NCBI GenBank assembly: GCA_904378095.1
Contig: CAJFHE010000010.1
Coordinates: 446 to 64,445 of the forward strand
Direction: 5' to 3'
Length of the DNA stretch: 64,000 nucleotides
Origin: an uncultured Clostridia bacterium
GTDB lineage: Bacteria > Bacillota > Clostridia > TANB77 > CAG-508
This document shows positions 11,197-47,110 of the stretch, one piece after another. Position numbers and translations under genes: made by a program. The notes under the pieces are model-generated. The model was not told the origin of the DNA and searched no databases. It saw only the letters and a list, made by a program, of their open reading frames with translations. The number at the start of each line of letters is the position of its first letter. Positions within the stretch are counted from its first letter, which is position 1.

Positions 11197-11225
11197 CACT
11201 TTATTGCTTTTATTATATTTGCATT

Positions 11226-20823: not shown

Positions 20824-21073
20824 CTCTAACTTTTTATTTATGCATTAATGTTTTCTATGTAGCTTTTCTTTCGTGTAAACAGCTTATTTAATGCTGTTTT
20901 AAATTATAGTTCTTTTCAATAAATTTTTTTGTCACATTTAATCCATAATATAAAAAAGTTTTTTACAAAATGTGATGTGTTATTATTTTTTATTTTAATT
21001 TATAACAGTTTATGCATATAATTTTATCGCAAAATAGCATTTTTTTCAATACATTGCAAAAAAATAGTAAAAC

Positions 21074-21111
21074 TTGGGTGACAGATTTAAATCTGTCACC
21101 CAAATTTCACT
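21074..21111. repeat. REP-like family B palindrome
   Basis: Perfect 30-bp palindrome TTGGGTGACAGATTT|AAATCTGTCACCCAA followed by ATTTCACT. Confidence 0.8.
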
Positions 21112-21116
21112 ATTTA

Positions 21117-24100: not shown

Positions 24101-26036
24101 AGATACCTTTCATTTCTTCTTCACTTGGGAATTTTTGGTTTGATTCTACAAATGACCTGATTTGTGAACTTACTACACCTTCTGTATATTCGTCTGTTTG
24201 TAAACCATTTTCATCATATTCATATCCATCTATTAATTGAGTTCCGGATTTAGTATATGTGCTTCCATTTAATTCATATCCCATTAACTCTATTTGACTA
24301 AATGATTGGTTATGTCCTTCTACTAATTGACCTGATCCCAAATTATCTGTTGAAGGATAATTCTTTGGTGATGAGCCTATTTCTTGGAATCTACTATCAA
24401 ATCCGCTTCTTTCTCCGTTATCTTCTGTCGCCTTTGAAGTCTTCTTCCATTCCTCAGTATTATATTCTGGCCTCTTATAGTCTGTTGGCAAATATGTCTG
24501 TCCATTATATTCAAAGACAACATAGTATTTTTTCATTGGGTCTAGACCATTAAATTGATAATATCCTTCTTCATCAGTTAAAGTAGAGTTAATATGTCTC
24601 CATACTTCTTTATCTGGATCCTGCTCTAATTGCTCTACTACTGCCATTTCATCATCTTCTGTATATAATGTAACTTTAATATTCTTTAATTTAATATCGC
24701 TATCTGTACGAAGGCCATCTGCAAGCGATTCCTTACCTTCTAAGATATCTTCCCATACATATCCACCCAAATTCATAAATAAATCCTCTTGCTCATCTGG
24801 TGGTGGTGGTGTCCCCTCACCTGGCAAGTAAAATTCTTGCTCATATAATGTTCTTATGGCATCTGCACACATTACTGGTTGCTTTTGAACTGGGTCTTTT
24901 ATACCTATTTTTTCACAATAATAACAGTTACTTCTTGTAATATTTCCTTCTGAATCACGATGGTCATGGTAGTCATAATTTCTATGATAATATGTTACTG
25001 GATCATATTTCCATCCTTGGAAATCCACTTTTTCGCCATTTGCTTGCATATATTGGAATACCACCTTGATAGAATATGCTACTATTCTATTTGGGTCATC
25101 TTCTGCAAGTCCTGCATTTGGATCTTCAAATATTACATCAAATTCTTGGTCACTTTCTGGGTAGACTTGCTCTGTTTCATCAACATAGAGTGGTGACTCT
25201 GGTTCAAAATATTCCGGTGTTTTTTCTTGATTGTCTATTACAAATTTTTGTATTTCTATGTCGTCTCTTACCATTGTACCTTCTCTATTAAAGCCAACGA
25301 CTGTCATTTCATGTACTCCACCAAATGCAATATTGCCATATATTCCTTCAGTATATGTCATTTTATATGGTCCAACTGTATATAATCCTCCTGGTTGGTC
25401 TACTGCAACTAATACTTTTTCATGATTTGTTGCATCTTTAGGGTCCAATCCATTTTTTGGTCTAACTTGGTCATCAAAGTCTTGATAGTTTATTGATTCT
25501 TGGTATAAACTATTGTTATATCCCCATAAAGCTTCATTCTTTAAATCTGAATATGCATCTATTGGCTCATCAGATACTATATATGCTTGCCATGGCTCCA
25601 ATGTGCCACTACCTGTAGCTGTAAAGAATGTCGTTGATTTTAAGCCTTCATATCTGCCGGTTGCACAGCTTCCATGTGCATTAAACTCTAATCCTATACA
25701 AGATTCAGCCTGTGCTTTTGTTATATCATAATAATATGCATCTGCTGGTGTACCATTATGTGTACAGAATATTTGATATCCTGGGTTTTGTGGATTATAG
25801 TGTGGTGCTCCAGAAGTTGTAAAACATTCCCAGTCTCCACATAAATTATATGAGTAACTACCAGGATCTGGTCCTTCTACAATCTGTCCAAAGCTCATTG
25901 CTCTTGAAGTTGCATCAGTTTCTGTTGCATCTCCATCTGCTGCAATTACTTCTTTTGTAAGAATACCACTTGCTACAAATACATTTAAAAGTAGCATTAT
26001 TAAAATTATTGTAGCAATTAAAATTTTACGCTTCAT
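21117..26036 (-). CDS. Giant secreted surface protein with SdrD/Cna-B-like domains and a C-terminal sorting-like signal
   Basis: Signal peptide; two SdrD-B-like units (LGGYVWED...TDEEGYYQF; ANGVVWED...GGYDFSSFIPGDYIVRF); C-terminal LPPFG + TM + basic tail; 1639 aa. Confidence 0.8.
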   Translation of the reverse strand: MKRKILIATIILIMLLLNVFVASGILTKEVIAADGDATETDATSRAMSFGQIVEGPDPGSYSYNLCGDWECFTTSGAPHYNPQNPGYQIFCTHNGTPADAYYYDITKAQAESCIGLEFNAHGSCATGRYEGLKSTTFFTATGSGTLEPWQAYIVSDEPIDAYSDLKNEALWGYNNSLYQESINYQDFDDQVRPKNGLDPKDATNHEKVLVAVDQPGGLYTVGPYKMTYTEGIYGNIAFGGVHEMTVVGFNREGTMVRDDIEIQKFVIDNQEKTPEYFEPESPLYVDETEQVYPESDQEFDVIFEDPNAGLAEDDPNRIVAYSIKVVFQYMQANGEKVDFQGWKYDPVTYYHRNYDYHDHRDSEGNITRSNCYYCEKIGIKDPVQKQPVMCADAIRTLYEQEFYLPGEGTPPPPDEQEDLFMNLGGYVWEDILEGKESLADGLRTDSDIKLKNIKVTLYTEDDEMAVVEQLEQDPDKEVWRHINSTLTDEEGYYQFNGLDPMKKYYVVFEYNGQTYLPTDYKRPEYNTEEWKKTSKATEDNGERSGFDSRFQEIGSSPKNYPSTDNLGSGQLVEGHNQSFSQIELMGYELNGSTYTKSGTQLIDGYEYDENGLQTDEYTEGVVSSQIRSFVESNQKFPSEEEMKGIYSQIAGGDTETWRKLQFIEDCKIKAYTGNLIQGGEKDLYPYYEKGMFYINSTSNEVGRGAEISHDQSDKVEEGKTYKPIYDGQYFINLGLWRRQEFDAALRKDVYRATLKINNKTVVYKYDKRNTNSGDGEGTNVSSGSDNNTYWDINVRMSDYDAYYGMEYNRELYESDYLFNTPGGIAEGHPGNPLEIYVTYKITVRNQSMSIMGQIQEVVDYYDKEYTYRDDLSWVTYDNNTVNEDEFYNAMVSEDVGQISSAKATDSSDSSKYGAASESDIAGNEYNAVYIKGLSGKKLASGESAYIYLTFQVNKENNRVILDGGKYATTDTPKENIAEINGFSTYYKDGTSLPNGVSKGSSDIAGLLDRDSNPGNLESEDIQGENYEENFEDDTDRAPGLRVIIDEEAIRKANGVVWEDQRNETVGDSGNSSDTIIGDGIRQEGETGVQGVTVDLIEKCIDGTEWNWGNTTTAGNGGYDFSSFIPGDYIVRFQYGDTEATAVAGNSNVVSYNGQDFKSTTYQEGIDQNGPTDISENYYGYTDTASQNETGTFGYDIYASDSNSTNYSDAKDIWSRREAVNNYSTNNVTNHVAEVLASAYSGDSSLYGELIENTKMTAETGVIVVEFEYDRQQTEGPKDIANNSSNSSRDYVGDNQYNSNYTLNNIDLGLTERPKAQLEIDKSVANVKVTLANNTILFDINEAANNALWQDHKEYSIDEEKMNSNDGGIDFDGGEIGMYDEYYTDEARHRYSFREVIDTDIMRRADKGLIQLTMDEELMHGATIQVTYTVKITNVGEVDYVDGANKNFYYKGDTSGASVATTTANQVVDYVANNFQFNSTNATNTADGWTFIEDSNLLNSDLVNARLTEQLSQFNTIIETENFGEQALLPGQEISKTLILSQLITPENTDDDLTYNNMVEIVKTSNTAGRRMAYSVVGNQDPTLSDASEVDTSMAERIVILPPFGSGEILTYCAIALAVGAVLVVGIVLIRRKVLKGKNS

Positions 26037-26053
26037 TATGGTCCTCCTTTCTT

Positions 26054-29000
26054 CTAAACTTTCTTATTTTTATTTAAAACATGTTTTTTTATCTCATATA
26101 TGCCAATTATTAATATAGCAATTACTGCAATTATTATTGCTGTATAAGTAACAATTTTACCTGTTACTAAGCCTAATACTAAGTCTGCTTTTGACATATC
26201 ATCTTCATTTGTTGCTCCATTTGCTTCTTCTGAATCTATATCTTGTAATCCTTGTTCATTGTATGTCTCATAAATTTCTGCCGTATTACTTGTTATTCCA
26301 AGTTTATCTTCTGTAATGTTTACTGAAAGTAATAATTTAATTTCTTGTGTGTCTCCAGGGTTCAATCTAGTATTTTCTAGACTAGCATTGTATATATTTC
26401 CATTGTCAGATAAATACCAATCTCTGTTTAATTCTGTGTTAAATGAAAATCCATCTGGTATATAGTCTACAATGTTTCTAACATAACCTGGTACACTTCC
26501 TTCATTTGTAACAATTATTGTATATTCAACTACTGCTGTACTCTTTCCTAAGTTTTGTCCTAAAACTTCAACTTGTGCTACTTTCAAATTGTTATGCTCA
26601 TATTCGCTTGTTCCTATTGTTGGAGTTGATAATGTAACTTTGCTTACATATTTATCAAGTCTTAAGTCAAATTTTGCTGCCTCATACATACCAATATCTA
26701 TATCTCTTGCATTATCATCAGTTATTTGTATTGAATCTGTAATTGCTGCTATTCTTCTTTCTCCGTTTAGAGTTAAGTTTACGTCAATAACGTCTGAGTT
26801 AAACGCTGTATCAACACCTTGTGCTTGATATGTTGTTAAACTATATCTTGATGAATCATATACAAATACTACTAAGTAGTTTCCTGGTTCAAGATTACTA
26901 AACTCATATCTTCCGTTATTAGATGTTGTTGTGATTTTTGGTTCATTTGTATCTACGTCTTGTACAATAGTATTTTGTCTTTGATTTAATAGATATACTT
27001 GTATTCCTGAAACGATTTCTTCTCCATCATCTCTTCTACCATCTTGATTGCTATCTATCCATGCTGTACCAGTAATTCTGTATCTGTTTGATGTTTGTCC
27101 AGGATTATTGTCGTCATTTGGTATTCCTGGATGATTTATATCTGTGTTATATTCTACATAGTTTACAACTTCATTAGTCTCAATATCTGCCATGCTATCT
27201 GATTGTACTAAAATTTTATTTCTAATTTCTTTATCATTTTGATCTGGCAAAAACTCTGTTGTAGCAACTATCTCAACCTCTGTAGTATTTCCTGGGTCTA
27301 GCCAGTTGATTTCTATTGTTAATTTGCCATCTTCTATCTTAGATACAGCTGCAGTATCTCCATTATATGTATAAGTTGCATTTACTTCTCTTATTCCATC
27401 TGGAATTTGGTCTATTATTTTTAAGTTAGTAGCTTGTGAATTTCCTGCATTTGTTACACTAAATTTATATGTAATGTCTTCTCTTTCTTTTACATATCTT
27501 GGAGTAGATGTTAGTTCTGATACCTCTAATTTAACTGGTTCGATTTTATGTTCAAAAACATTTGAGTAGTTTTCTTCGACTCCGTCTCCAGTAGCTGTTG
27601 CTAACATCCTTATATCTCCAGTGTCATCTATAACTTTTGTACTTAGTAAAATATATTTTACTCTTTCTAGTGTTCCTAAAGCAAACTGTAAAGTACGTGT
27701 CGATTCATTATATGAAATGCCATCAGTTATACCATTTTCATCCATTAATGAATTTTTTATTGTTGCACTAGTATATTCTAATCCTTCTGGCAATACAATT
27801 TTAGCAACAACATTATTTATTCCTTCTAGGTCTCTTATATTAGTCAAAGTAATTATAAAATTAATTTCATCACCATTTTTTAGAACTGTATCATCTTCTA
27901 CACTTGGTACCATACTAATTGATATGCTTCCATCATCAATCTGCATTGTATATATATTAGAAGGTATTGGATTTTTTAATTCATCTGTAAAGATTTCTAA
28001 AGAATGCTCTACAGTTTTTGGGAAGTCAGGTGAAACAGCATTTTCATCTGAACTACTGTAATCCCTAATAGCACTATCTTCAACTTGCAAATAATATGAT
28101 ACTTGTCTTTCTTCGTTTGGCTCTAAATCTCCAATTTCTCTAACTAATGGTACTTCTTCATCTACTGGTGCAAAGTTACTATTTAAACGTAATTCTACAA
28201 AGCTCATATAGTGTGGCTCTGGAATTCTTATTCTTACATTATGTGCTGTCTGCTCACCAGTATTTTTTACAGTAGCTGTCATTTTTACAATTTGTCCTTC
28301 TCTTACTGTGTCTATATTAGCAGAAATATCGGCTGAAAGTTGTGGGCCTGTCTCTGTCTTTATTCCTATTACTGCTGATTCTTTACTCTCTGGCATAGCA
28401 CCTATTTCTGATTCATTGTTATAGTACACTTTGTACATTCCATATGATGCACTATTTGGTTCAAGGTTTCCCGGAATTGTAATATCATATGTAAAGTCTA
28501 TTCTTGTTCCTTCTGGCATCTTATAGTCTTCTGCAAATACTATTAAGAAAGATTTTGAATTCGTTGTACCTTCTTCTGTCCAACCATTGTTGACATCTTC
28601 TATGTCTCTAGTAGCATTTACATTGTCTGAATAATATACTTTATAATTTGATGTATCTACGCCTGTAAGTGATAATTGTGTAGATAAAGGGATATTAAAT
28701 GTTGAGCCTAATGAATCGCTTGTATCTATTCTTGTATTTCCTTCTGATGGAAGTCTTCCTAATACAACTATGTTTCCTATGTTGTTTCCATAGTTATTAA
28801 TAATTATTCCATTCATTGTAGCAACTCTTTCGTTTGCATAAGCATCAATTTCTACTGTTTGAGCTTCATCAGACATTGATAAAATATCTTCTGCTCCTTC
28901 TTTATAATTGCTAATACCATTTGCTGCTACAACTCCTGTTGGTGCAACATAGTTAACTGTTTCGTCTAATACTCCCTCTGTTTCTGTTGCTGTTTCATTA

Positions 29001-31045
29001 TTATTTACATATTCCATAGTAATTTTATCATTTCCACTTGGGGTTAATGTATCAAGTGTCAGGTCAGTATTAAGTACTACTATTGCTCCTTTGTAATCTG
29101 AATTTAATGAATATTCTGTTTGTGTACCTTCAAGTTCCACATTAATAATTTTGTTTCCTTTTTCTTCAGATACTTTCGTATCTTTTATTTTTAAACCATT
29201 TGCTAGCAATATGTTAGAACTTTTTAAATCTATTTCTTTAACTGCTTCTGGTAATGTTATTTTTAATGTTGGATTTGTGAATAATGCATTATATTGACTA
29301 GAAGTATCTAATGTTGCTCTAATTTCTACATTTTCATTTTCTACAACTGTGGTTAAATCTGTTTTGCTTACTTCTAGTTCAACTTTTGTTTCAGGCTCTT
29401 CTAATATTATCTCAGTACTTGTTGTAGATTTTGTAGTATTTGTTTCTCCTTCTAAGTCTAATTTCATTTTTACAAAGTTTTTCATTTGCTCTTTTGAGTA
29501 ATCTATGTTTCCACTCAAAGCTTTTACAATATTTATTTCTAGTTGTCCTTCTGTTATTGGTGCAGTGGTTTCTATTGATAATTTATTATTGTTTCCGGAA
29601 TTTATATTTAATACATAAACTCCATTTTCTAGAGTTGTTTCTTTATTTATCTTTCCAAGCTCAATTCCTTTATCATCTTTTACTGTAATAACTCCGTCTT
29701 CACCAAGCATTTTATTAAATATAGCTTGACTGATTTCTATTCGTTTATTATAGGCATAATTATTTCCACCTATTGTTGTAGCACCTGCTGCATTTTTTTC
29801 TGTTAAGAAAGTATCATATCCCTGTGAAAATTTTATTGAATTTGCTAATTTTGCACTATTTACAGTTGATACATATCTTGTATAATACTCTGTTTCAACT
29901 TTTTCATCTGCATCATAATTAGCATATACATATCCTTTACTAATGCTGCTTAGTGCAGATATACTAAAATCAGTAATTTCTCCCGTCTTTTCTGTGTATT
30001 TTATTTCTGCTTCTTTTGTTCTTGTTATAACAGTATCTGCATTATTATATACGCTGATATTTGAATTTACTGTTACAGATGTATTTACTCCATTTTGTCT
30101 AACATAATTATATATTTCTTCTCCTTCAAATATATAATTAACTAAATACTCATCTGTCGCATTTTCCTTCCAAGAAACATTTTCGCCTGTCATATTTGAA
30201 TTGCTTATTGTAACTATTCCGGTATTTGCATCATATGTATAATTGCTATTATTAAAATCTAATCCATCTGTTTTTCCATTTGTTGCTTCTGTTTTTGTTG
30301 CGATAACATTTACTGATGTTGGCCTTATTTTGTTTATTATTGGTGCAACTATTTCTATATTAGTATTTTTTATTGGTAAGCTATTGTCTTTTACTTTGGA
30401 ATTTACTTTTGTTTGAAGCATTACTCCATAGTTTCCATCTGTTACATATGGTATATATTTTGTTGGCTCAACTGTTAATTCTGCTTCTGCTGTATCCTTC
30501 CATGCAAGTTTATTTACAACTTCTTTTTCAATTCCATTCTCTTTTCCGTTACCATCTATGTATGTAGCAGTAAATTTGGCTGTTACTTCTTTACCAAAGT
30601 AATCTTCTGTAATATTTTCTTTTCTTAGTATTTCAATTGGAAGCTCAATAACTATATCAGAGCCATTATTTAATTTATTTAATAATACCTTATTGTTTTC
30701 TACATCAATGCTTTGGATATTCTCGTTTGTAATTTCTCCTTTAAGCTTAAAGTTTGGATTTTGGTATTCTATCACTCCATTTTCCAAATATCCAGAGTTG
30801 TTTACTTTGACATTAAGATATATCTTTGCATCTTCACTATTTATTTCAAATGCTTGATTATGTGAATTGCCATAAAAATATGAGTTAAATTCTACATTTT
30901 TATGATTAGTGCTTGATGTTTGCTCATTTAATTCATCATCACTTAATGCAAAAGTTATAGTATATTCTCCTAATATTGCTAGGTTTGTACCTACTAAAAC
31001 TATTACTAAAAATAAGGCAAGTAATTTGTTTAATAATTTGTTCAT
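26054..31045 (-). CDS. Giant secreted surface protein with DUF11-like and SdrD-B-like domains
   Basis: Signal peptide; repeated (Y/F).(F/I)...N.G motifs; ITGTAWIDSNQDG...GRYEFSNLEPGNY; C-terminal TM + basic tail; start at ATG 31045 after GGAGGT. Confidence 0.8.
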   Translation of the reverse strand: MNKLLNKLLALFLVIVLVGTNLAILGEYTITFALSDDELNEQTSSTNHKNVEFNSYFYGNSHNQAFEINSEDAKIYLNVKVNNSGYLENGVIEYQNPNFKLKGEITNENIQSIDVENNKVLLNKLNNGSDIVIELPIEILRKENITEDYFGKEVTAKFTATYIDGNGKENGIEKEVVNKLAWKDTAEAELTVEPTKYIPYVTDGNYGVMLQTKVNSKVKDNSLPIKNTNIEIVAPIINKIRPTSVNVIATKTEATNGKTDGLDFNNSNYTYDANTGIVTISNSNMTGENVSWKENATDEYLVNYIFEGEEIYNYVRQNGVNTSVTVNSNISVYNNADTVITRTKEAEIKYTEKTGEITDFSISALSSISKGYVYANYDADEKVETEYYTRYVSTVNSAKLANSIKFSQGYDTFLTEKNAAGATTIGGNNYAYNKRIEISQAIFNKMLGEDGVITVKDDKGIELGKINKETTLENGVYVLNINSGNNNKLSIETTAPITEGQLEINIVKALSGNIDYSKEQMKNFVKMKLDLEGETNTTKSTTSTEIILEEPETKVELEVSKTDLTTVVENENVEIRATLDTSSQYNALFTNPTLKITLPEAVKEIDLKSSNILLANGLKIKDTKVSEEKGNKIINVELEGTQTEYSLNSDYKGAIVVLNTDLTLDTLTPSGNDKITMEYVNNNETATETEGVLDETVNYVAPTGVVAANGISNYKEGAEDILSMSDEAQTVEIDAYANERVATMNGIIINNYGNNIGNIVVLGRLPSEGNTRIDTSDSLGSTFNIPLSTQLSLTGVDTSNYKVYYSDNVNATRDIEDVNNGWTEEGTTNSKSFLIVFAEDYKMPEGTRIDFTYDITIPGNLEPNSASYGMYKVYYNNESEIGAMPESKESAVIGIKTETGPQLSADISANIDTVREGQIVKMTATVKNTGEQTAHNVRIRIPEPHYMSFVELRLNSNFAPVDEEVPLVREIGDLEPNEERQVSYYLQVEDSAIRDYSSSDENAVSPDFPKTVEHSLEIFTDELKNPIPSNIYTMQIDDGSISISMVPSVEDDTVLKNGDEINFIITLTNIRDLEGINNVVAKIVLPEGLEYTSATIKNSLMDENGITDGISYNESTRTLQFALGTLERVKYILLSTKVIDDTGDIRMLATATGDGVEENYSNVFEHKIEPVKLEVSELTSTPRYVKEREDITYKFSVTNAGNSQATNLKIIDQIPDGIREVNATYTYNGDTAAVSKIEDGKLTIEINWLDPGNTTEVEIVATTEFLPDQNDKEIRNKILVQSDSMADIETNEVVNYVEYNTDINHPGIPNDDNNPGQTSNRYRITGTAWIDSNQDGRRDDGEEIVSGIQVYLLNQRQNTIVQDVDTNEPKITTTSNNGRYEFSNLEPGNYLVVFVYDSSRYSLTTYQAQGVDTAFNSDVIDVNLTLNGERRIAAITDSIQITDDNARDIDIGMYEAAKFDLRLDKYVSKVTLSTPTIGTSEYEHNNLKVAQVEVLGQNLGKSTAVVEYTIIVTNEGSVPGYVRNIVDYIPDGFSFNTELNRDWYLSDNGNIYNASLENTRLNPGDTQEIKLLLSVNITEDKLGITSNTAEIYETYNEQGLQDIDSEEANGATNEDDMSKADLVLGLVTGKIVTYTAIIIAVIAILIIGIYEIKKHVLNKNKKV

Positions 31046-31405
31046 AATAACCTCCAATTTTTTTATAACATATAAATAAATTATACTACATTTTTACTAC
31101 TATTTCAATACTTTTATGTCTTTTGTGAAACTTTTTATGTATATTTTCTCCTTTTGCATATTTTTATATATAGAAATATTTTTTCATACAATATAATGAT
31201 TATATTTTAGCATCTTTTTGATATTTTTCAACATATAAATTATGAAATTTCTTTTTACTTTTTTTCTTTTTTTACGGAAGCTCATTTTCTAGACAAATAT
31301 TAAATTTATATTACATTTTTATTACAGTTTTGCAAAGTAACAATTTTTATTATTTAACATATTATAATATAGGTTTTATAACATATATTATATTGAGGTG
31401 AGTGT

Positions 31406-31564
31406 ATGGATAACAAGAATAACAATATGGATATGGCTAGTTTAATGGCTATGCTTTCTAAAATGGATAAAAAAGATTTAGAGCAAGGATTAAATAAAGT
31501 AAGCAACATGCTTAAATCTAAGGATGCAGAGCAGATTATAAATGAGATAAAAAAAAGTAAATAA
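31406..31564 (+). CDS. Small hypothetical protein (52 aa, MDNKNNNMDMASLMAMLSK...)
   Basis: Read directly from sequence (below ORF-track cutoff); RBS GAGGTG; first of three co-oriented small ORFs. Confidence 0.7.
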   Translation: MDNKNNNMDMASLMAMLSKMDKKDLEQGLNKVSNMLKSKDAEQIINEIKKSK

Positions 31565-31588
31565 CACAAAAATTTTTATTTTGGAGGA

Positions 31589-31981
31589 ATGTCTATGAAT
31601 GAAAATGATATGGGTAATTTAATGAATCAAATTAATCAAATTCTAAAAAATAACGATGTTCCTGACGAGCTAAAGAATATTGTTAATAATTTAAAGAATT
31701 CTTCCAATAATAAAGATAACAATTCAAATGAAGATAAATCAAGTAGTGATGACAGTGGCTCTCCAGAGCTTGACATTAATACTATTCTTAAAATGAAGCA
31801 AGTCATGGATTCCATGAATTCAAATAAAAATGACCCAAGAACAAATTTGTTATTATCATTAAAGCCATATTTAAAAGAAAGTAGAAGAGAAAAAGTAGAC
31901 CAGTATATTAAGCTATTTGGTTTAGAAAAAGCATTTGAAACCTTTAGCTCCCTAGGTGGTGAGAAGAAGAATGATGTATAA
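31589..31981 (+). CDS. Hypothetical protein, possibly sporulation-associated
   Basis: RBS GGAGG; DPRTNLLLSLKPYL...KVDQYIKL tail recalled from clostridial small proteins. Confidence 0.7.
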   Translation: MSMNENDMGNLMNQINQILKNNDVPDELKNIVNNLKNSSNNKDNNSNEDKSSSDDSGSPELDINTILKMKQVMDSMNSNKNDPRTNLLLSLKPYLKESRREKVDQYIKLFGLEKAFETFSSLGGEKKNDV

Positions 31982-32324
31982 CTTTCCATTTTTTCCACAT
32001 TTTTATCCTAGACCATACTATAATTATCCACAAAATAATGCTAGAAATGTGAATAATAGCAATTCCGCAAAAAGAAATACTGCTTATAATAATGCCAACC
32101 ATCACCATAATAATGAAAAGGGTTCTCATAATCATAATATTTCCAGACAAGAAGATAATATGAATCATAAAACAGAAAAAAAAGATGACATCATATTTGA
32201 AGTTTTTGGCATAAAACTACATTATGATGACATTCTTTTAATCTGCTTAATTTTCTTTCTTTATAACGAAGGCGTTAAGGATGAGTTTTTATTCATTGCA
32301 TTAGTTTTGCTGCTTTTGTCATGA
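31971..32324 (+). CDS. Hypothetical protein with N/H-rich linker and hydrophobic C-terminus
   Basis: Overlaps upstream stop; DDILLICLIFFLYNEG...ALVLLLLS tail. Confidence 0.7.
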   Translation: MMYNFPFFPHFYPRPYYNYPQNNARNVNNSNSAKRNTAYNNANHHHNNEKGSHNHNISRQEDNMNHKTEKKDDIIFEVFGIKLHYDDILLICLIFFLYNEGVKDEFLFIALVLLLLS

Positions 32325-32327
32325 GCT

Positions 32328-32945
32328 TTATTCTAATATAAGCTCATCCTTATCATTTATATATGCAGAAGTTTTAACTTTATGAATTTCTCCTTCATCT
32401 CTTTCTATTTCTTTTACAATATCGGCAATTCTAATTTGGACCGCCTCTATATCAACCGCTTCTATAACGGCATCTTTGTTACCTTTAGCTCCTGCATGCG
32501 CCAAGCCCCTTAAAGCTCCTACCACTACTATATTCTCTCCTGCAACAACTTCTGCCCCAGCATTTACATCACCTATTATTACAATACTGCCTTCAAATTC
32601 TAGTCTTTGTCCTGAGCGTAGAGAGCCTTTATGGAATTTAGTTTCTGAAGTTGCTACTTCTTTATAAAATGTTTTCTTTATTCCGTGTAATCCCAACACT
32701 TTTGGACTATCAAAATCTATTTGAACATCGATAAATTTCTTAATGACTGATTGTATTTCTTCCATTTCCCTGTTCTTCAGAATTTTGCCTGTAATCAGTA
32801 TTGGAGTTTTGTCATCCTTATATAAGTTTTTTAGCTCTAAGATTTTTTTCTTTAAGCATGATACTATTTCTCTTTGCTCAGCATTTTCATCAATTTTTAT
32901 TATTACTTGATTTTTTTTCATATTAATATTAATACAATTATTCAT
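32328..32945 (-). CDS. minC: Septum site-determining protein MinC
   Basis: SLRSGQRL...VIIGDVNAGAEVVAGENIVVVGALRGLAHAG; directly after pbp2. Confidence 0.92.
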   Translation of the reverse strand: MNNCININMKKNQVIIKIDENAEQREIVSCLKKKILELKNLYKDDKTPILITGKILKNREMEEIQSVIKKFIDVQIDFDSPKVLGLHGIKKTFYKEVATSETKFHKGSLRSGQRLEFEGSIVIIGDVNAGAEVVAGENIVVVGALRGLAHAGAKGNKDAVIEAVDIEAVQIRIADIVKEIERDEGEIHKVKTSAYINDKDELILE

Positions 32946-32998
32946 ACTTGGTTTCATTCCTTTCTCAAGTAGCACATCCAGTTAATCTATTTTTATTA

Positions 32999-35074
32999 TT
33001 ATCTAACACTCTCTAAACTCGACTCCGCAGTTTTGTCTTCTGTTATTTCTTCCGAATTCATACCAAAATATTCTTCTATTATTTGCTTTGCTGTATAAGC
33101 TGTATATCCTCCTGAGCCAGCTCCTTCAATAAGTACAACTACTGCTATTTCAGGATTTTCATATGGAGCAAATCCTGCAAACCAACCATGCACAATATCT
33201 TCGTCTTGTGTCTGTGCCGATCCTGTTTTTCCTGCTATTACCATATCTAAATCTGTAAAATATGAATAAGCTGTACCTCCTGCCTCACTGGTAACACCTT
33301 TCATTCCCTGTCTAATTGCTTGTAGATTTTCTTCTGATATATTTAAATCTTCTTCAACCTCATTCTTTGTTCCAAGTTTATTATCTATATAATTTTCAAC
33401 ATCTTCCTTTGAAACCTCTGAGCCATCTGAATTTATTATAGATTTTATTAGGGTTACATCAACATTTTTTCCACCGTTGGCAATCATGCTTATATATCTT
33501 GCCATTTGTATAGGTGTAAATTCATTATAACTTTGACCTATGGATGCAGCTAGTGTATCTGCCAAATACCATGTATAATTTATACTCTCTGCATATGCAG
33601 TACTAGCAAGTGTTCCAGATGCTTCACCTGTAAGCTCTATTCCTGTTCTTTTACCCAATCCATATTTTGAAGCATATTCTGCTATCTTATCTATGCCTAA
33701 TCTATATCCCATTTCATAGAAGAAATAATTACATGAATATTTAAGAGCTTGGGTTACATTTAAGTATCCATGTCCGCTTCTATAATTTCTATAATACCAG
33801 CATACCGGATGATAACTATATGGGTACACACCAGTATCATTAATTCTCGTTTTAGTTGTTATTTCGCCTGTATCTAATGCTGCTGTTGCAACAGCCATTT
33901 TAAATGTAGAGCCTGGTGGATATGCTGAGCTTATTGCTCTGTTTGTATATCTTCCCGTGTTATCTTCTGAATATTCTTCAGAGAATTTTTCTGGATTATA
34001 ATCTGGGTAGCTTGCCATCGCCAAAACTTCTCCACTATTAATATCCATAACAACTACAGCTCCAGCTTTAGCATCATGTTTATCTCCATATTTGCCATTT
34101 GCTATATCTTCTATATTTTGTTTCAACGCTTCTTCTGCAACCTTTTGTAAGTTGGCATCAAGAGTTAATATAACGTCTGAGCCTGCGACTGCTTCTTTTG
34201 AAATATATTCACTAGTAATTGCTCCATCAACTGTCATATCAACTTGTTTTACTCCATCTGTTCCTTTTAAATAATCCTCTAAAACATATTGAATGCCATC
34301 TTTTCCAATCACATCATCATTTCTATATGTATCTTTTCTAGTTTCATACTCAGATTCACTAATTGCTCCTACATAACCTAAAACATGTGATGCTAAACTT
34401 CCTGATGTATATGAAACTGTTGGCTCTGTTGTTACATTCATACCTGATAATTTTGCGTTTTGCTCTCTAATTTGTACTGCAGATGTATCACTTATGTTAT
34501 TAGCTATTTTTACTGATTTGGTTGAGCTATATCCATTTCTAGTAATTTCATATCTTACCACCATAATTTTTCTTGCCAAAGCATTATCCTCTTCAGTAAT
34601 TTCATATTTTTGTTTTAGAGCATTAAAAGCGTCTTCTGCACTAAAATTTTCATCTATATCATTATTCTTTTTCCAATTTTTTTGCTCTTCTTCTGTTTCT
34701 TGGGTGAATTTAAAAGGGTCAATTTCAATTGGCAAATTGTCTATGAATTCATCTTCATTGTTTTCTAATATTTCTATAAATTTTTTTATTGAATTATTTA
34801 GTGTGCTATCATCAACTTTTGTACTATAAATTTCAACACTGTATTTTGTATCTGTTGTAACAAGCTCCACTCCAGTTCTATCTTTTATTGAGCCTCTTGC
34901 TGCCTTTAGGACGCTCTCTCGCGTTAGCCTTGAATTAGATTCTTCTCTATATTCAGCGCCATGTATAATCTGCAAATTAAACAACTGAATAATTAAAATA
35001 ATTCCTATTATGTACACAATTGTTGTAAGTATATTATACCTTAATCTCCCCTCTGTATTATTATTCTTCCCCAA
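32999..35074 (-). CDS. mrdA: Class B penicillin-binding protein (PBP2/MrdA-like)
   Basis: TM, dimerisation domain, SxxK (GSTFK), SxN (YSCN), KTG (GKTGSAQ); in the mre operon. Confidence 0.88.
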   Translation of the reverse strand: MGKNNNTEGRLRYNILTTIVYIIGIILIIQLFNLQIIHGAEYREESNSRLTRESVLKAARGSIKDRTGVELVTTDTKYSVEIYSTKVDDSTLNNSIKKFIEILENNEDEFIDNLPIEIDPFKFTQETEEEQKNWKKNNDIDENFSAEDAFNALKQKYEITEEDNALARKIMVVRYEITRNGYSSTKSVKIANNISDTSAVQIREQNAKLSGMNVTTEPTVSYTSGSLASHVLGYVGAISESEYETRKDTYRNDDVIGKDGIQYVLEDYLKGTDGVKQVDMTVDGAITSEYISKEAVAGSDVILTLDANLQKVAEEALKQNIEDIANGKYGDKHDAKAGAVVVMDINSGEVLAMASYPDYNPEKFSEEYSEDNTGRYTNRAISSAYPPGSTFKMAVATAALDTGEITTKTRINDTGVYPYSYHPVCWYYRNYRSGHGYLNVTQALKYSCNYFFYEMGYRLGIDKIAEYASKYGLGKRTGIELTGEASGTLASTAYAESINYTWYLADTLAASIGQSYNEFTPIQMARYISMIANGGKNVDVTLIKSIINSDGSEVSKEDVENYIDNKLGTKNEVEEDLNISEENLQAIRQGMKGVTSEAGGTAYSYFTDLDMVIAGKTGSAQTQDEDIVHGWFAGFAPYENPEIAVVVLIEGAGSGGYTAYTAKQIIEEYFGMNSEEITEDKTAESSLESVR

Positions 35075-41264: not shown

Positions 41265-43553
41265 TTATATAATCTCAAGATTTGCAAATTTTGCCATTAA
41301 TCTCTTATGTCCTACTTTATCAAAAGAAATGTCAAGTTTATAGTCTTCTCCTTCTTCTTCAATTTTATTAATTATTCCTTCTCCGAATTTTTTATGGTAA
41401 ATGCGCTGTCCTTCTTCATATTTAGTTATATCCGTGCCTTCGTTTGTTTTTTTATTGTTTAATGAATTCAAAAAGTTTTCTGCAGTTTTAAATTGGAAGC
41501 CTGATGCTGCTACTCCAAAGTTACTGCTATATTCTTTATCTATCTTGTATGTTTTTACTTTAGAGGATGTACCATATTCCCATTTATATCCGCTATCCTC
41601 AAATTCATTTGACTTTGAATTTTCTAACTGGTCATATCCATCTAATAAGTCTGATGGAATTTCGTTAATAAATCTTGAAACTGCGTTATAGCTTGTTGAG
41701 CCGAATATTGTTCTCTTTTTAGCACATGTTAGGTATAAATATTGTTTAGCTCTAGTAATTCCAACATAGAACAAACGTCTTTCTTCTTCTAACTCTTTTG
41801 GCTCTCCAATGGATTTATTGCCTGGGAATATTCCTTCTTCCATACCAACTAAAAATACAGCTGGGAATTCTAGTCCCTTAGCACTATGTAATGTCATAAG
41901 TGTAACAGAATCGTCTGAATCTTCCATTCCATCTATGTCACTACTTAATGTAATACCTTCCAAAAAATCTCCTAATGTGTTTTCCGCTTCTTCCTCTTCA
42001 AACTCTATTGCAACTGTTAAGAACTCCTCTAAGTTTTGTAATCTTGTTTCTGCTTCTGTTGTATTCTCTAACTCTAGTGCTTTTACATATCCTGTCTTAT
42101 TCAAAGTTTCTTTTATTAATTCAGAAATACTAAGCTCATCAAGTTTTCCTCTTAAGTATTCTATAGTTTCTATAAACTCTGCACCATTTGCTTTTACCCT
42201 ACTTAAGCCATATTCATCTGCGTGTTTTATAATGTCAAACATAGACAATCCCGTTTGCTCAGAAATTTCTTGTATATTATCTATACTCGTCTTTCCAATT
42301 CCACGTTTTGGCTCATTTATAATTCTTTTTAGAGAAATATTGTCTGAGAAATTATATATTAATCTTAAATAAGAAATAATGTCTTTAATTTCTTTTCTTT
42401 CATAGAATTTTAAACCACCAACAATTTTATATGGTACTCCTTCTCTTCTTAAAATTTCCTCTATAGCTCTTGATTGAGAGTTCATTCTGTATAGCACTAC
42501 AAAGTCTGAATACTTAAAATATTCCTCTCGTCTTAAATGATTTATTTCCTCTACAATATATCTTCCTTCATCATATTCATCGTCAGACTTGTGTATTATC
42601 GGAAGATTTCCTTCGTCATTTTCTGTCCATAATTTCTTTTCATATTTATTTTCATTATGCTTTATTACTGCATTTGCAGCTTTTAAAATATTTCCTGTGC
42701 ATCTATAATTTTGCTCTAACTTTATAATTCTCGTTCCAGGGAAATCTTTTTCAAAATTTAGTATGTTAGTAATATCCGCACCTCTAAAGCTATATATACC
42801 CTGGTCATTATCACCAACAACTGTTATATTTCCATACTTAGAAGCTAGGATTGTAACTAAAGTAAATTGCGCTTTATTTGTATCCTGATACTCATCTACC
42901 AAAATATATTGGAACTTGTTTGTATAATACTCTAGAGCATCCTCGTTTTCTGTAAGTATTTTAATGGTATAATTTATAATATCATCAAAATCTATTGCAT
43001 TATTTTCTTTTAGTCTATGTTGATATAGCTCGTATATCCTACCAATAACTTCTTTTCTGTAATCACCTGCATATTTTGTTTGATATGCTTCTGGCGTGAG
43101 CATCTCGTTTTTTCCATTGCTAATTTCAGACAAAACACTTCTATCCGTAAACATTTTGTCATCTATCTTTAATGTCTTCATACATTCTTTAATAAGTGTC
43201 TTTTGGTCAGATGTGTCAAATATTAGGAAAGAATGGTCGAAACCTATCCTGTCTATGTATTTTCTTAAAATACGTACACAAATAGAGTGGTATGTTCCAA
43301 TCCACATGTCTTTTGCAGCCTCTCCAACAAGCTTTTCAACTCTTTCTTTCATCTCGTTTGCGGCTTTATTTGTAAATGTTATAGCCAAAATATTCCATGG
43401 CTTAACATGATTTTCCATCATTAAATATGCTATTTTATGTGTTAATACCTTTGTCTTACCACTTCCAGCACCAGCTATAACCAAACATGGCCCTTCTGTA
43501 GCAAGTACCGCTTCTTTTTGTTTATCATTTAATCCTTCTATTAATTCTTGCAT
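41265..43553 (-). CDS. pcrA: ATP-dependent DNA helicase PcrA/UvrD
   Basis: AGAGSGKT, TFTNKAANEM, VDEYQDTN, VGDNDQGIYSFRGA, LEQNYR, TLHSAKGLEF, EERRLFYVGITRA. Confidence 0.97.
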   Translation of the reverse strand: MQELIEGLNDKQKEAVLATEGPCLVIAGAGSGKTKVLTHKIAYLMMENHVKPWNILAITFTNKAANEMKERVEKLVGEAAKDMWIGTYHSICVRILRKYIDRIGFDHSFLIFDTSDQKTLIKECMKTLKIDDKMFTDRSVLSEISNGKNEMLTPEAYQTKYAGDYRKEVIGRIYELYQHRLKENNAIDFDDIINYTIKILTENEDALEYYTNKFQYILVDEYQDTNKAQFTLVTILASKYGNITVVGDNDQGIYSFRGADITNILNFEKDFPGTRIIKLEQNYRCTGNILKAANAVIKHNENKYEKKLWTENDEGNLPIIHKSDDEYDEGRYIVEEINHLRREEYFKYSDFVVLYRMNSQSRAIEEILRREGVPYKIVGGLKFYERKEIKDIISYLRLIYNFSDNISLKRIINEPKRGIGKTSIDNIQEISEQTGLSMFDIIKHADEYGLSRVKANGAEFIETIEYLRGKLDELSISELIKETLNKTGYVKALELENTTEAETRLQNLEEFLTVAIEFEEEEAENTLGDFLEGITLSSDIDGMEDSDDSVTLMTLHSAKGLEFPAVFLVGMEEGIFPGNKSIGEPKELEEERRLFYVGITRAKQYLYLTCAKKRTIFGSTSYNAVSRFINEIPSDLLDGYDQLENSKSNEFEDSGYKWEYGTSSKVKTYKIDKEYSSNFGVAASGFQFKTAENFLNSLNNKKTNEGTDITKYEEGQRIYHKKFGEGIINKIEEEGEDYKLDISFDKVGHKRLMAKFANLEII

Positions 43554-43658: not shown

Positions 43659-43694
43659 AAAACAAACCAATGTTCAATACCATTGGTTTGTTTT
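43659..43694. terminator. Intrinsic terminator after the pilin-like gene
   Basis: AAAACAAACCAATG/CATTGGTTTGTTTT 14-bp stem. Confidence 0.75.
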
Positions 43695-43712: not shown

Positions 43713-43739
43713 TTGCTCGCGCCATCGTGGTGCTTGCAA
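43713..43739 (-). other. GC-rich imperfect hairpin immediately after the stop of the pilin-like gene (possible DGR IMH-associated element)
   Basis: TTGCTCGCGCCATCGTGGTGCTTGCAA in a very AT-rich background, separate from the terminator. Confidence 0.45.
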
Positions 43740-43741
43740 TT

Positions 43742-46700
43742 TTACTTGACATACAGTTGGATACGAGCTGAGGAGCCATCCGAGGCATTATCAGTTGACT
43801 CGCCCTTGTAACGGAAGGCTGCATAAGGGTAATCATGATAACTATAATTGTAATATCCTCCCCTTAGAACACAAGGTCCGTCGCTACAGTAACAGTATTC
43901 CGTAGTCCATTCACAGCAATTACCAAGCAAATCATGAATATTGCTATAATTATCTGCAGCATATGCTCCCGTTTTTTTCTTAGTTCCTTTATAAAAATTA
44001 CCATATGTTTTACTTTTTGTTGTAGCTAATGTATATCCTTCACTATTTGTTTGACATATAAAATTTAATGCTGTATCCCACGCATAACTACTTATTAACT
44101 CACTTACCACATAAGTATTGCCACTATACATTGCTTCTGCCTGACTCTTTGCTATATCTCTTGTAATATTAACATAAGGAGTAACTCCTGCCTTAACTAC
44201 ATTACCTTTACCCAACTCGTATCTGCCAATATAAAAACCACCATTTCTACTTACACTGTCTTTAAAGGCTCCAATCTGATTATATGCAACTGAACGACTA
44301 TCTCCTTCTCCATAAAAGTAGTAATCAGTTTCATTGGGTTCATCTTGGTCATCTAGAATTCCAGAATCATCACTTACCTCTGTTGCTCCACTTGATGTAA
44401 ATTTTCTTCTACTTAAATTATTTGTCATTTGGCCATCTACTGTTTCATCACTATCCACTGCCAAAGTCACATTGTATGTTCCTGTTGGTATCCATACAAA
44501 TTGGTTACCATCGCCATCCTCTATTACAACTCCTTCTTCTACACTTGTTCCACTATCTGCATCTAAATGGAAACCTCCTGGAATTACTACTGTGTTGCCT
44601 TGGTCGTCTTGTACTGGTGTAGTTGTATCAAATGTTGGTCCGTCCTGACCTTCTGTTGGTTTCGCATCCCCCATATCAGGTACTGCTTTTTCTACTGTTA
44701 TTGCATCTGATATTGTCTCTATTTTATTTCCCGCAATATCCTTTGTTAATACATGTAGATAATATGTGCCAGCTGTGTCTGTTGATAATGTTAATTCTTC
44801 TGGATTTGTTGTAAAACTATTTGTATAACTTCCTTCCTCTATTCCTATATTTCCACTTGTTGTGTTATATACCCATTTACTTCCTGTTACATCTATTCCA
44901 CTTTCATTATCTGTTAATGTAACTGTAGCTGTAACACTTCCATCTGTATCTGTGCTTGTTCCATCTAAGCTTATTGTAGTTGCTTGTGGTACTATTGTTT
45001 CTGTTATACTTGCACTTGCATATTCTCCATGGTTTACTCCATCTGTTAAACGTGCATATACTGTATCAGCATAGTTTAAGTTTGAAATAGTACCATTATT
45101 TGCTATTCCAGTCCAATTGTCTTCTGTAATTGCTCCTATTTGGTATTCAATTTGGTAACTTGTATTTGTACTTACTGAGATACTTGCCTTATTACTACTC
45201 CAGCTTACTGCTCCAAATGTTATTGCTCCTTCTTCTACATCTTCTCCACTTCCATCTGGAATTGTTGCTGTTGTTTGTCCTGCTAAATAGCCTGTTCCTG
45301 TATTATCTGCATTGTCACCTGTAACTTCTACTTTTACATCATAACTCGTTCCTTGGATTAATCCTGTAAATATATATGTGCTTTCTGCAATATTATTTGC
45401 TTTTGCTATATATGCTGTGTCTTCTTCAATACTTTGTTTAATGTAATATGTGTATGTTGGACTTGCTGCCATTCCACTTTCATTGTCACTTGCTGTTACA
45501 TTTACTTTTATACTATTACTTGTTGATGTTCCTAATGTTACATTTACTATTGGTGCTATTTCGTCTCCTATTGTCACTGTTACAAAGTCTCCATGGTTTG
45601 TTCTATCTGTTAATCTAATGTTTACTGTATCTCCATATTTTAGGTCTGAGACTGTTCCGCTGTTTCCTATATTTGTCCAACTTCTATCTGATGTGTCGTT
45701 TACTTGATACTCTATTTGATAACCAGAATCTGTGCTAATATCTATACTTGCTTTGCCATCACTCCATGCTGGGTCAGTTACTATTATCGTTCCATCTTCT
45801 AGTAAGTCTTCTCCTCCTGGAATATCTGTTGTTGTTTGTCCTGCCAAGTAACCTGTCCCTATATTTCCAGCTTTATCTGCTTTTGCTTCTACTTTTATAT
45901 CGTAACTTATCCCTGATTGTAAATCACTAAATGTGTATGTGTTTTGCGATATATCTGTTGCTTCTACTGAATAATCTGCACTTCCACTTTGTTTGATAGA
46001 ATATGTGTATGTTACATTATCTGACATTCCACTTTCTTTATCTACTGCAGACACACTTACTGTTATGCTATTACTTGTTTTTTCTTCCGCAGTTACATTT
46101 ACCTCTGGTACTGTTTTATCTTCTATTGTTGTTTGTTGAATCTCACTGTCATTTACTCCATCTGTTATTTTTGCATATACTGTGTCTCCATGTTTTAAGC
46201 CTGTTATGCTTTGTCCTCTTGTGATTGTTGTCCATTGTCCTTCTGTACTGCCTATTTGGTATTGTAGTGTATATCCTGACTCTGTCGTAGAAATTTCCAT
46301 GCTTGCGGTGCCATCTCCTTGCCATGTTGCTTGTCCAAATGTTATTGTATTGTCAGGTATTTCTGGTACTGGTGGTGTTTCTTCTCCTACTTGTACTGTT
46401 ATTGTTTTTTCTATTGTCGTACCATCATCTAATTTTGCTGTTACTTTTATATCATATGACGTATTATTCTCTAATCCACTAAATGTAAAGGTGTTTGTGT
46501 TGCTTTTTCCTGCTTCTTGCCAAGCTTCTTCTCCTTCATCCGTCTTTTTGTATGAGTATGTGTACTCTGCATTGTCTACATTTTTTGTTACTACTTCTAC
46601 ACTTATACTATTTTCTGTTTTGTCTGTTACTTTTATACTACTTATGCGTGGCTCATTGTTTTTGCCTACATATTCTATGTCCAAGTCTCCATCCGGCTCT

Positions 46701-47050
46701 AGTGTTACTTCGCATACTCTATCTCCTTCTGTCGTTACATCATAGCTTCCGTCTCCATTATCCACTACATCTGTCTCTTTATCATTTATTATTCCTTCTT
46801 CCTCTAAAATGTCAAAATAATGGTCTGGGTCTATGTCTCCTGCTCCATCTATATATGCTGAGCCCTTTGCCATTTCTAATTGCTCTAGTATTCTTGATAC
46901 TTCTGACATTTCTGCTGCTTGTTGTGCTCTTGTTATTAAACCGTTCTCTCCAAATGTGAAATTAATTGCTATTGTTGATAGAATTATTATAATAACTATT
47001 GTAATAACTAATGCAACGAGCGTAATACCTTTATTCTTTAGTTTTTTCAT
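43742..47050 (-). CDS. Large surface protein: type IV prepilin-like N-terminus, FN3/Ig-like repeats, C-terminal FGE-sulfatase/C-type-lectin-fold domain
   Basis: KNKG|ITLVALVITIVIIIIL class III-like leader; repeated ~180-aa units; GGFYIGRYE, HDLLGNCCEWT, RGG motifs; start at ATG 47050 after AGGTGG. Confidence 0.8.
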   Translation of the reverse strand: MKKLKNKGITLVALVITIVIIIILSTIAINFTFGENGLITRAQQAAEMSEVSRILEQLEMAKGSAYIDGAGDIDPDHYFDILEEEGIINDKETDVVDNGDGSYDVTTEGDRVCEVTLEPDGDLDIEYVGKNNEPRISSIKVTDKTENSISVEVVTKNVDNAEYTYSYKKTDEGEEAWQEAGKSNTNTFTFSGLENNTSYDIKVTAKLDDGTTIEKTITVQVGEETPPVPEIPDNTITFGQATWQGDGTASMEISTTESGYTLQYQIGSTEGQWTTITRGQSITGLKHGDTVYAKITDGVNDSEIQQTTIEDKTVPEVNVTAEEKTSNSITVSVSAVDKESGMSDNVTYTYSIKQSGSADYSVEATDISQNTYTFSDLQSGISYDIKVEAKADKAGNIGTGYLAGQTTTDIPGGEDLLEDGTIIVTDPAWSDGKASIDISTDSGYQIEYQVNDTSDRSWTNIGNSGTVSDLKYGDTVNIRLTDRTNHGDFVTVTIGDEIAPIVNVTLGTSTSNSIKVNVTASDNESGMAASPTYTYYIKQSIEEDTAYIAKANNIAESTYIFTGLIQGTSYDVKVEVTGDNADNTGTGYLAGQTTATIPDGSGEDVEEGAITFGAVSWSSNKASISVSTNTSYQIEYQIGAITEDNWTGIANNGTISNLNYADTVYARLTDGVNHGEYASASITETIVPQATTISLDGTSTDTDGSVTATVTLTDNESGIDVTGSKWVYNTTSGNIGIEEGSYTNSFTTNPEELTLSTDTAGTYYLHVLTKDIAGNKIETISDAITVEKAVPDMGDAKPTEGQDGPTFDTTTPVQDDQGNTVVIPGGFHLDADSGTSVEEGVVIEDGDGNQFVWIPTGTYNVTLAVDSDETVDGQMTNNLSRRKFTSSGATEVSDDSGILDDQDEPNETDYYFYGEGDSRSVAYNQIGAFKDSVSRNGGFYIGRYELGKGNVVKAGVTPYVNITRDIAKSQAEAMYSGNTYVVSELISSYAWDTALNFICQTNSEGYTLATTKSKTYGNFYKGTKKKTGAYAADNYSNIHDLLGNCCEWTTEYCYCSDGPCVLRGGYYNYSYHDYPYAAFRYKGESTDNASDGSSARIQLYVK

Positions 47051-47110
47051 AATTTTAACCACCTTTTATTATATATTTTACATATAAGTTATTAATTTTA
47101 TCCTGTCAAA

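Follow-up and report, generated by a model that had tools for sequence, protein, structure and literature searches.

The diversity-generating retroelement (DGR) of Treponema denticola serves TvpA together with seven scattered remote target genes (structure 2Y3C; PMC5758913), and DGRs that contain a MutS-like (MSL) protein form the "Architecture D" of Wu et al. 2018 (PMC5758913). The literature already describes targets remote from their DGR, targets with a lectin fold, and MSL cassettes (PMC5758913, PMC8144416). Here we examine a DGR-target-type gene in a 64,000-nt stretch of DNA (hereafter the window; contig CAJFHE010000010.1, positions 446 to 64,445, assembly GCA_904378095.1) from an uncultured Clostridia bacterium. 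An earlier interpretation of the window made from its letters alone (the sequence-only reading) had proposed that a remotely acting DGR diversifies the 3′ end of this gene, which was taken to encode a type IV pilus-associated adhesin. We find that the segment is a DGR-type variable region (VR) by descent, fold, and composition, and that its behaviour in this species is that of a conserved, not a hypervariable, domain.

The locus compares with the described systems as follows. The T. denticola targets are alike in having a C-terminal VR on a C-type-lectin/FGE-type fold, in being surface proteins, and in forming a multi-copy family with paralogues distant from the reverse transcriptase (RT) gene; TvpA was also among the top structural matches of the window tip. 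The T. denticola cassette, however, includes an HRDC accessory gene, whereas the relatives of the window gene are accompanied by MutS-like and bAvd proteins, and for the window copy, with a VR that is static across strains, neither a template repeat (TR) nor an RT was found. Architecture D is seen in loci L011 and L130-L140 of those relatives, which carry target, MutS_I-domain protein, bAvd, RT, and TR on one strand, in contrast to the window, which holds a target-type gene only and no cassette parts. In Mtd of Bordetella phage BPP-1 and TaqVP of Thermus aquaticus (1YU0-4, 5VF4) the VR likewise forms the C-terminal face of a ligand-binding fold, and these proteins were the best Foldseek matches of the window tip (E = 3e-4 to 7e-3, probability up to 1.0), although TM-scores were just 0.33-0.47 and identities 10-13%. 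Mtd is, moreover, a phage tail-fibre protein with an initiation of mutagenic homology (IMH) element and a GC-rich hairpin directly past its VR, whereas the window protein is chromosomal, has a fibronectin type III (FN3) stalk, and is encoded by a gene that has no equivalent of those elements. Finally, in the type V pili of gut Bacteroides (bioRxiv 10.1101/2024.11.15.621889) a DGR diversifies the adhesive tip of a similarly fibre-like surface structure, but the phylum and the pilus system are different, the pilin character of the window protein is sub-threshold, and the window copy is not diversified.

Results

A DGR-type variable region in a multi-copy family of gut Clostridia

A search with the last 194 aa of the target protein as query yielded 132 homologues, with identities to family members of 54-79%. 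The homologues are conserved up to the residues DLLGNC and are hypervariable thereafter at set positions only, following the pattern xEWTTEYxSxSxxPCVxRGGxYxxSxxYAAxRx(12)SFRxQLYxK. Scanning of species-representative genomes gave 207 relatives, from which 79 loci were kept, all of them in metagenome-assembled genomes (MAGs) of uncultured Clostridia or Bacillota. The family often occurs in 4-10 copies per genome, and the readable sample names point to gut or faecal sources. When viral_contigs was searched with the family alignment, one distant locus was returned, and the family is therefore not mainly phage-borne.

The composition and codon usage of the segment fit a DGR-type VR. The GC content was 79/180 (0.439) over positions 43741-43920 versus 34/120 (0.283) over positions 43921-44040, just upstream in the gene, exactly as had been counted in the sequence-only reading, and a value of 0.44 was reached by only 0.05% of the 180-nt windows in the 64 kb. 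Codons with C or T in the third position made up 74% of the VR and 38% of the remainder of the gene (Fisher p = 1.4e-6); in this remainder 54% of the codons end in A. The fixed codons listed in that reading (CCT TGT GTT, AGG GGA GGA, GCA GCC, CGT, and TCA GCT CGT) were all present, as were the codons said to lie between them (TAC, TGT, GAC, TTC, GGC, TCC, GAT, and CAT), and the fixed ones correspond to the scaffold residues that are invariant across the protein family (PCV, RGG, AA, R, and S-x-R). This run of C/T-ending codons amid an A-ending gene is the footprint of AAY templates and not of amino-acid choice.

The fold of the tip is also that of a DGR variable protein. An AlphaFold2 model of the last 294 aa (pLDDT 89.6, pTM 0.91) was compared with known structures by Foldseek, and the best 11 matches in the PDB were the DGR variable proteins Mtd, TaqVP, and TvpA along with the FGE-like CarF (probabilities of 0.63-1.0). 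The match to the Pfam FGE-sulfatase family PF03781 fell below the gathering score (14.9 bits vs 23.3, E = 0.022), and a precomputed PF03781 match was present in only one homologue, P0118. Of the FGE-sulfatase/C-type-lectin domain that had been proposed, the motif part thus amounts to a sub-threshold Pfam match and the fold part is borne out by the model and its structural matches. Homology, fold, and composition agree on a DGR-type VR at the C terminus of a C-type-lectin/FGE-fold surface protein.

One paralogous tip, P0002 (loci L002-L007; e.g., L002 10001-10675), is a 224-aa, N-terminally truncated protein with a gene that is 81.6% identical in nucleotide sequence to window positions 43861-44624. 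Its gene is flanked by DHH and MFS genes, and genes for sortase, dockerin, and cohesin lie nearby. P0002 was recorded in 31 contigs, its sequence was identical in the six loci examined, and the hairpin that follows active VRs of the family (see below) has been lost. The P0002 and window loci occurred together in two samples (ERZ21563605 and ERZ21549410) and may share one genome.

DGR cassettes and their activity in relatives

The DGR RT signature IGNYTSQ...Y[LM]DD was detected at three loci of the species-representative scan, and TR/RT cassettes were recovered at L011, L067, L082, and L130-L140, the last of which were found via RT homologues and consist of MutS_I, bAvd, RVT_1, and TR. The gene order at L011 (Table 1) is target, MutS-like open reading frame (ORF), Avd-like ORF, RT, and TR, and the RT-14 RNA (Rfam RF02921, 119.8 bits) lies just 3′ of the TR. 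The L011 VR and TR have 30 mismatches, 30/30 at TR adenines, and the variable TR codons are AAC or AAT, as they are in all TRs seen in the family. As a control for activity, we compared cassettes in which the TR was identical and the RT region 99.7-100% identical; their VRs differed from the TR at 17-26 adenines with 0 non-adenine mismatches and also differed among strains (L130 vs L131; L134, L136, and L137).

The nucleotide scaffold is identical among paralogues in the MAGs CAWVJY01, CABUKD01, and HGM13672, their variable codons are of the form NNC/NNT, and no RT lies within 10 kb of them. L070 differed from the TR of its own genome (L082) by 21 adenine vs 4 other mismatches, and L029 from the L130 TR by 26 adenine vs 4 other mismatches. 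Judged from these alignments, there is evidence for the relatives also diversifying paralogous targets that would be reached remotely. The adenine-only TR/RT cassettes beside relatives, together with this evidence for remote targets, agree with the proposal that the protein family is diversified by DGRs.

Cassettes are not constant features of these loci. L010, in MAG HGM13672, corresponds to the L130 locus at 98-99% identity without MSL, Avd, RT, and TR, and cassettes have therefore been lost or gained between close strains; comparison of L010 10570-10790 with L130 8882-11904 shows the 3-kb MSL-bAvd-RT-TR block as a presence/absence polymorphism. At least 10 family paralogues are present in MAG HGM13672, none of them with an RT within 10 kb.

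Several further features of the relatives were recorded. Active VRs can differ from their own TR by in-frame steps of ±3 nt inside AAC/AAT runs, with all substitutions at adenines (L130 8720-8885 vs TR 11066-11212; the L136 VR vs its TR; L011 1655-1661; and the L138 VR), which suggests slippage during cDNA synthesis or integration that adds length variation to the tip loops. At L134-L137 (10001-10873) the RT was called as 290 aa, not 335 aa, and is seemingly shorter at its C terminus; the VRs beside this 290-aa RT still differ among samples at adenine sites only. At L138-L140 (12167-14158) the DGR lies directly upstream of a sortase gene and a SpaA/TED-type pilin gene, a context that may tie the DGR family to sortase-assembled pili.

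The variable region of the window copy is nearly invariant among strains

We compared 17 alleles, comprising the window and 16 others from different samples; these 16 were retrieved by looking up the flanking PcrA and HTH proteins as exact matches, by a single pattern scan, and from one previous look-up. Another look-up, via the neighbouring 68-aa protein, gave only contigs under 3 kb that did not reach the VR. The 16 alleles were 94.5% to 100% identical to the window overall, and ONAT22-1_SAMEA6814661 scaffold_583 matched it at 100% across the 3.5-kb gene region that was compared. In the 15 short-read alleles, segregating sites numbered 3/179 nt in the VR, 1/567 in the adjacent tip domain, and 187/3142 in the rest of the gene. 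The 17 alleles contained only two VR haplotypes, which differ at site 43807 (A/G, AAG/GAG, K/E), site 43787 (T/A, AAT/AAA, N/K), and site 43773 (C/A, TCC/TAC, S/Y). L113 and L124 possessed the VR of the window despite 180 mismatches elsewhere in 3.5 kb (94.5% identical overall), and the 90% protein cluster (10 distinct sequences in 26 contig records) revealed the same two haplotypes.

The proportion of segregating sites was 6-11% in the stalk versus 0.2% in the adjacent tip domain. Polymorphic blocks were located at about 44460-44820, 45540-45900, and 46260-47000, and the tip and intergenic region were almost invariant. A variable stalk with an invariant tip is the reverse of what is expected of a DGR target and suggests recombination among stalk repeats or alleles. 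Variation among strains had been named in the sequence-only reading as part of what would refute it, and the VR proved less variable than the rest of the gene, with two haplotypes compared to 17-26 differing sites in relatives. The claim that a remote DGR diversifies the gene now is not supported by these data.

No reverse transcriptase or cognate template was found

Within the 64-kb window, the open frames contained no YxDD or GxxxSQ...YxDD motif (regular expressions, six frames), blastn with a word size of 7 detected no repeat of the VR, and neither the RT-14 RNA nor the TR-flank marker CTAATATTATTCNNGATTATATNTTTTACGGAATATA was found; these empty searches bear out the earlier statement that the window holds no RT and no template. 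A VR repeat was also absent from all of the 140 fetched loci, and no cognate TR was present among the seven TRs recovered from relatives. When the window VR was aligned globally to the TRs of L011, L067, L082, L130, and L136, the best of these alignments had 29 adenine and 30 non-adenine mismatches; cognate TR-VR pairs have 0-7 of the latter, and these TRs are therefore not cognate to the window VR. Comparison by eye showed that the TRs of L138/139 and L140 have a different scaffold. Scans of metagenomes and the viral collection with CCTTGTGTTNNNAGGGGAGGA found no TR; apart from chance matches, they returned only another allele (L105) and an unrelated member of the family (L100). We considered the prevalent RT clusters P0172, P0227, P0128, and P0131 as candidates for the RT of this species and rejected them, as all belong to cassettes of other species with GC contents of 26-29%, no nucleotide overlap with the window, and non-cognate TRs.

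Some codons of the window VR depart from those of a templated region. AAY template codons of relatives are aligned with 17 codons of the window, and 5 of these 17 end in A or G (GGA, CTA, AAG, GAG, and TCG) and are not obtainable by adenine mutagenesis of AAY. In-frame insertions in the window VR compared to its closest relatives, which might be taken as a sign of decay, count for little here, since a difference of ±1 codon from the TR is also seen in active VRs.

The window copy lacks the downstream elements of active variable regions

Active VRs of the family have a GC-rich end (...CAGCT) with the motif nnCTGnAAGCTGA after the stop codon, whereas the window VR ends in CAACT followed by AATTGCAAGCACC. 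In addition, the active VRs of L011 and L130-L137 are followed, 65-80 nt past the stop, by a covarying hairpin CTAGCGAACGAAGTACGCTAG of the form CTAGCG-AACGAAGTA-CGCTAG with the compensated stems CTAGTG/CACTAG, CTATCG/CGATAG, and CTACCG/CGGTAG. The same hairpin occurs at VRs without a nearby RT (L014, L023, L029, L040, L051, L053, and L061). No Rfam match was obtained for the hairpin, and it was not found after the stop of the window VR or at the static paralogue P0002. The hairpin is a candidate for a cruciform or for an element by which this DGR lineage recognises its targets, and we infer that the post-stop motif and the hairpin probably serve as recognition signals in the lineage.

The sequence-only reading had placed a GC-rich hairpin directly after the stop codon of the window gene. 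This stretch (GC 16/27) folds at -5.2 kcal/mol (z = -0.62), and 50/200 shuffled sequences fold as well; the structure is no better than shuffled sequence and is not the hairpin of active family VRs. Across 62 VRs the fraction of A/G-ending codons showed a weak trend with presence of the post-stop motif (0.175 vs 0.25, p = 0.015), which we treat as supporting colour only, the motif window of that comparison having missed the class that ends in NPES plus stop.

Architecture of the target-type gene and its neighbours

The features of the gene and of the related loci are collected in Table 1. The protein is built of an N-terminal anchor, an FN3 stalk, and a lectin-like C-terminal tip. It has 1102 aa if started at the ATG at 47050, and in an exact look-up this form was on record, with no record of the 1106-aa GTG-start protein. 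The gene was also called in 16 other assemblies (protein cluster P0241-P0250).

Table 1 Positions of features in the window and of cassette parts and hairpins in related loci
Feature	Positions	Strand	Basis or remark
Target-type gene, 1106 aa from GTG start	43742..47062	-	ORF list
K-rich leader and hydrophobic segment, MKKLKNKG followed by ITLVALVITIVIIIIL	46958..47050	-	Prepilin-signal-like, but Ile at +1 and Ala at +5
FN3-repeat stalk, limits approximate	44640..46650	-	Pfam fn3 E = 1.4e-12; strongly polymorphic among strains
C-terminal C-type-lectin/FGE-sulfatase-like ligand-binding domain, 294 aa modelled	43742..44626	-	AlphaFold2, Foldseek, weak PF03781
VR homologue, from GAA TAC (E-Y) codons to CAACT	43755..43900	-	Matches TR-covered stretch in relatives by alignment
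Polymorphic VR sites	43773..43807	-	Only three among 17 alleles, fully linked
Degenerate remnant AATTGCAAGCACC of post-stop motif nnCTGnAAGCTGA	43729..43741	-	Downstream comparison in 79 VRs
GC-rich stretch, hairpin of the sequence-only reading, no significant structure	43713..43739	-	DNA fold
Terminator-like hairpin, 14 pairs	43659..43694	.	Between target gene and pcrA
L011 VR	1570-1708		
L011 RT	2926-3933		IGNYTSQ...YLDD
L011 TR	4044-4179		
Covarying hairpin, L011	1796-1816		
Covarying hairpin, L130-L133	8949-8969		
Covarying hairpin, L134-L137	8968-8988		

The N terminus (KNKG/ITLVA) has Ile at +1, where Phe is usual, and Ala at +5, so that the Glu at +5 is missing. The N_methyl family PF07963 scored below threshold (13.5 bits vs a cut-off of 21.2, E = 0.056), and NCBIfam pilin models matched the N terminus with E = 0.002-0.03, far under their cut-offs. 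The motif [KR]GITL(I/V)ALVITI...GEGG(L/I)IxRAQ is kept throughout the target family. No pilus genes were found among the precomputed Pfam annotations of neighbours within about 10 kb, a statement that covers annotated neighbours only; these comprise Zip, PDDEXK_2, HTH, PcrA, Coat_F, M23, MecA, RadC, and MreBCD. With sub-threshold matches, no Glu at +5, and no pilus machinery among annotated neighbours, the description of the protein as pilin-like and type IV pilus-associated could not be upheld, and the putative link to type IV pili is an unverified resemblance of the predicted N terminus only.

Part of the window ORFs were scanned for domains, and four larger genes at 18328-35074 were assigned to SpoIIE, two adhesin-like proteins, and a PBP. 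The adjacent giant ORFs at 21117-26036 and 26054-31057 (both on the minus strand; 1639 and 1667 aa) contain SdrD_B, DUF11, and CarboxypepD_reg repeats and look like adhesins or cell-wall proteins. Within pcrA, positions 41716-41812 (minus strand) gave a sub-threshold match to Rfam n00280, the "Clostridioides difficile sRNA included into helicase gene" (42.5 bits vs a gathering score of 65.2, E = 1.7e-4). In L111 (strain BRZ_HD NODE_125, with an identical PcrA), a 510-aa multi-pass membrane protein at 4324-5856, before which a giant protein of 10,373 aa ends, stands in place of the entire target gene; the site upstream of pcrA therefore houses surface genes that vary among strains.

Discussion

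The gene in the window has the homology, fold, and composition of a DGR target, its relatives are served by active DGRs, its own VR is static, and the window contains neither a cassette nor the cis elements of active VRs. We consider it probable that this is an orphan or fossil VR, or a quiescent one, i.e., a DGR-target-type gene that is no longer, or is extremely rarely, diversified. The window copy would have been diversified in the past, and its DGR would since have been lost or silenced.

According to this account, the cassette of the relatives (target, MutS-like protein, bAvd, RT, TR, and RT-14 RNA) makes adenine-mutagenised cDNA from the TR, and mutagenic retrohoming rewrites the last ~140 nt of their target genes. 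Replacement of the VR in this manner affects the target adjoining the cassette as well as paralogues that have no RT within 10 kb. The window copy, without the cis elements of active VRs, would have been fixed since in this species; it would have drifted at positions that no DGR can change, and it is now almost invariant across the population, most likely through purifying selection on a now-fixed ligand specificity. Such a past would account for the rise in GC, the excess of C/T-ending codons, and the Y/S/D/G/N-rich tip within a fixed PCV-RGG-AA-R-SxR scaffold.

Several observations weigh against an orphan VR and speak for the alternative that survives best, namely a VR that is an active remote target and that a DGR at another genomic location rewrites either rarely or under such conditions or selection that only two haplotypes stay common. 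Remote targeting is a feature of the family, the literature documents distances of more than 100 kb between target and RT (PMC5758913), and the codon signature of a DGR is for the most part retained in the window VR. Elsewhere in the genome, a distant DGR with the cognate TR could be present; the searches of this species' DNA covered the 64-kb window. Of the four segregating sites of the tip domain, three lie in the VR (Fisher p = 0.045 vs the adjacent 567 nt); these linked differences are all non-synonymous, have A as one allele of each, and are the only ones in 1978 nt of L105 (a chance of about 7e-4 for all three to fall within the VR). Furthermore, retrieval of most alleles relied on flanking proteins that matched exactly and was thereby biased towards closely linked haplotypes, and consensus assemblies mask within-sample variation. 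The difference from active relatives nevertheless holds, because the positive controls, selected by identical means, have heavily divergent VRs.

We regard continuing remote diversification as unlikely. Two haplotypes among 17 alleles and 26 contig records are to be set against the 17-26 differing sites of active relatives, and each retrohoming event of the family alters about 20 sites. The templates implied by the two haplotypes, AAG and AAA, can mutate to stops, whereas all family TRs use AAC/AAT. The post-stop motif and hairpin of the active L011 and L130-L137 VRs are missing, and no cognate TR was among the seven recovered or turned up in one metagenome scan. A narrower form of this idea, to which we give slightly less credence still, is that the VR is a competent but rarely firing remote target and that a single, partial retrohoming event is recorded in the two haplotypes, whose three linked A-involving changes lie in the 3′ half of this region. 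If this were true, a Firmicutes DGR would tune the lectin tip of a pilin-like, FN3-stalked fibre, and its targeting would need neither the post-stop motif nor the hairpin.

It is also improbable, to a somewhat greater degree, that the three-site difference arose by recombination or gene conversion from an allele or paralogue, with the tip and pcrA forming a recently swept block. Both haplotypes occur on diverse stalk backgrounds, polymorphism falls abruptly at about 44460 and is near zero through the tip domain and intergenic region, and the paralogous tip P0002 is found in some of the same samples. The number of sites at which the P0002 VR departs from either haplotype is, however, far greater than three, and P0002 is therefore not the donor; in any event this explanation concerns the origin of the haplotypes only and is compatible with an orphan VR. 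Very improbable is an ordinary lectin tip that was never a DGR target and owes its composition and Tyr/Ser-rich loops to binding chemistry and ordinary selection, since the lack of any TR or RT found for the window copy, a VR conserved like a normal functional domain, and the sub-threshold FGE-sulfatase match are outweighed by position-by-position homology to TR-verified VRs with the same scaffold and variable slots, by the AAY-template footprint in the C/T-ending codons (74%, in a gene with 54% A-ending codons), and by a GC content of the VR that is an outlier within the window.

Surveys of DGRs usually begin at the RT, and remote or orphaned targets are missed as a result. A VR-like footprint consisting of a rise in GC, C/T-ending codons, and a Tyr/Ser-rich lectin tip identifies the family and not ongoing diversification, a matter that a comparison of alleles across samples settles cheaply. 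VRs that possess the post-stop motif and hairpin are hypervariable and those without them (the window gene and the truncated P0002) are frozen, which makes these elements candidate DGR-target signals. For the organism, our results suggest a surface adhesin with a specificity that hypermutation explored in the past and that later became fixed.

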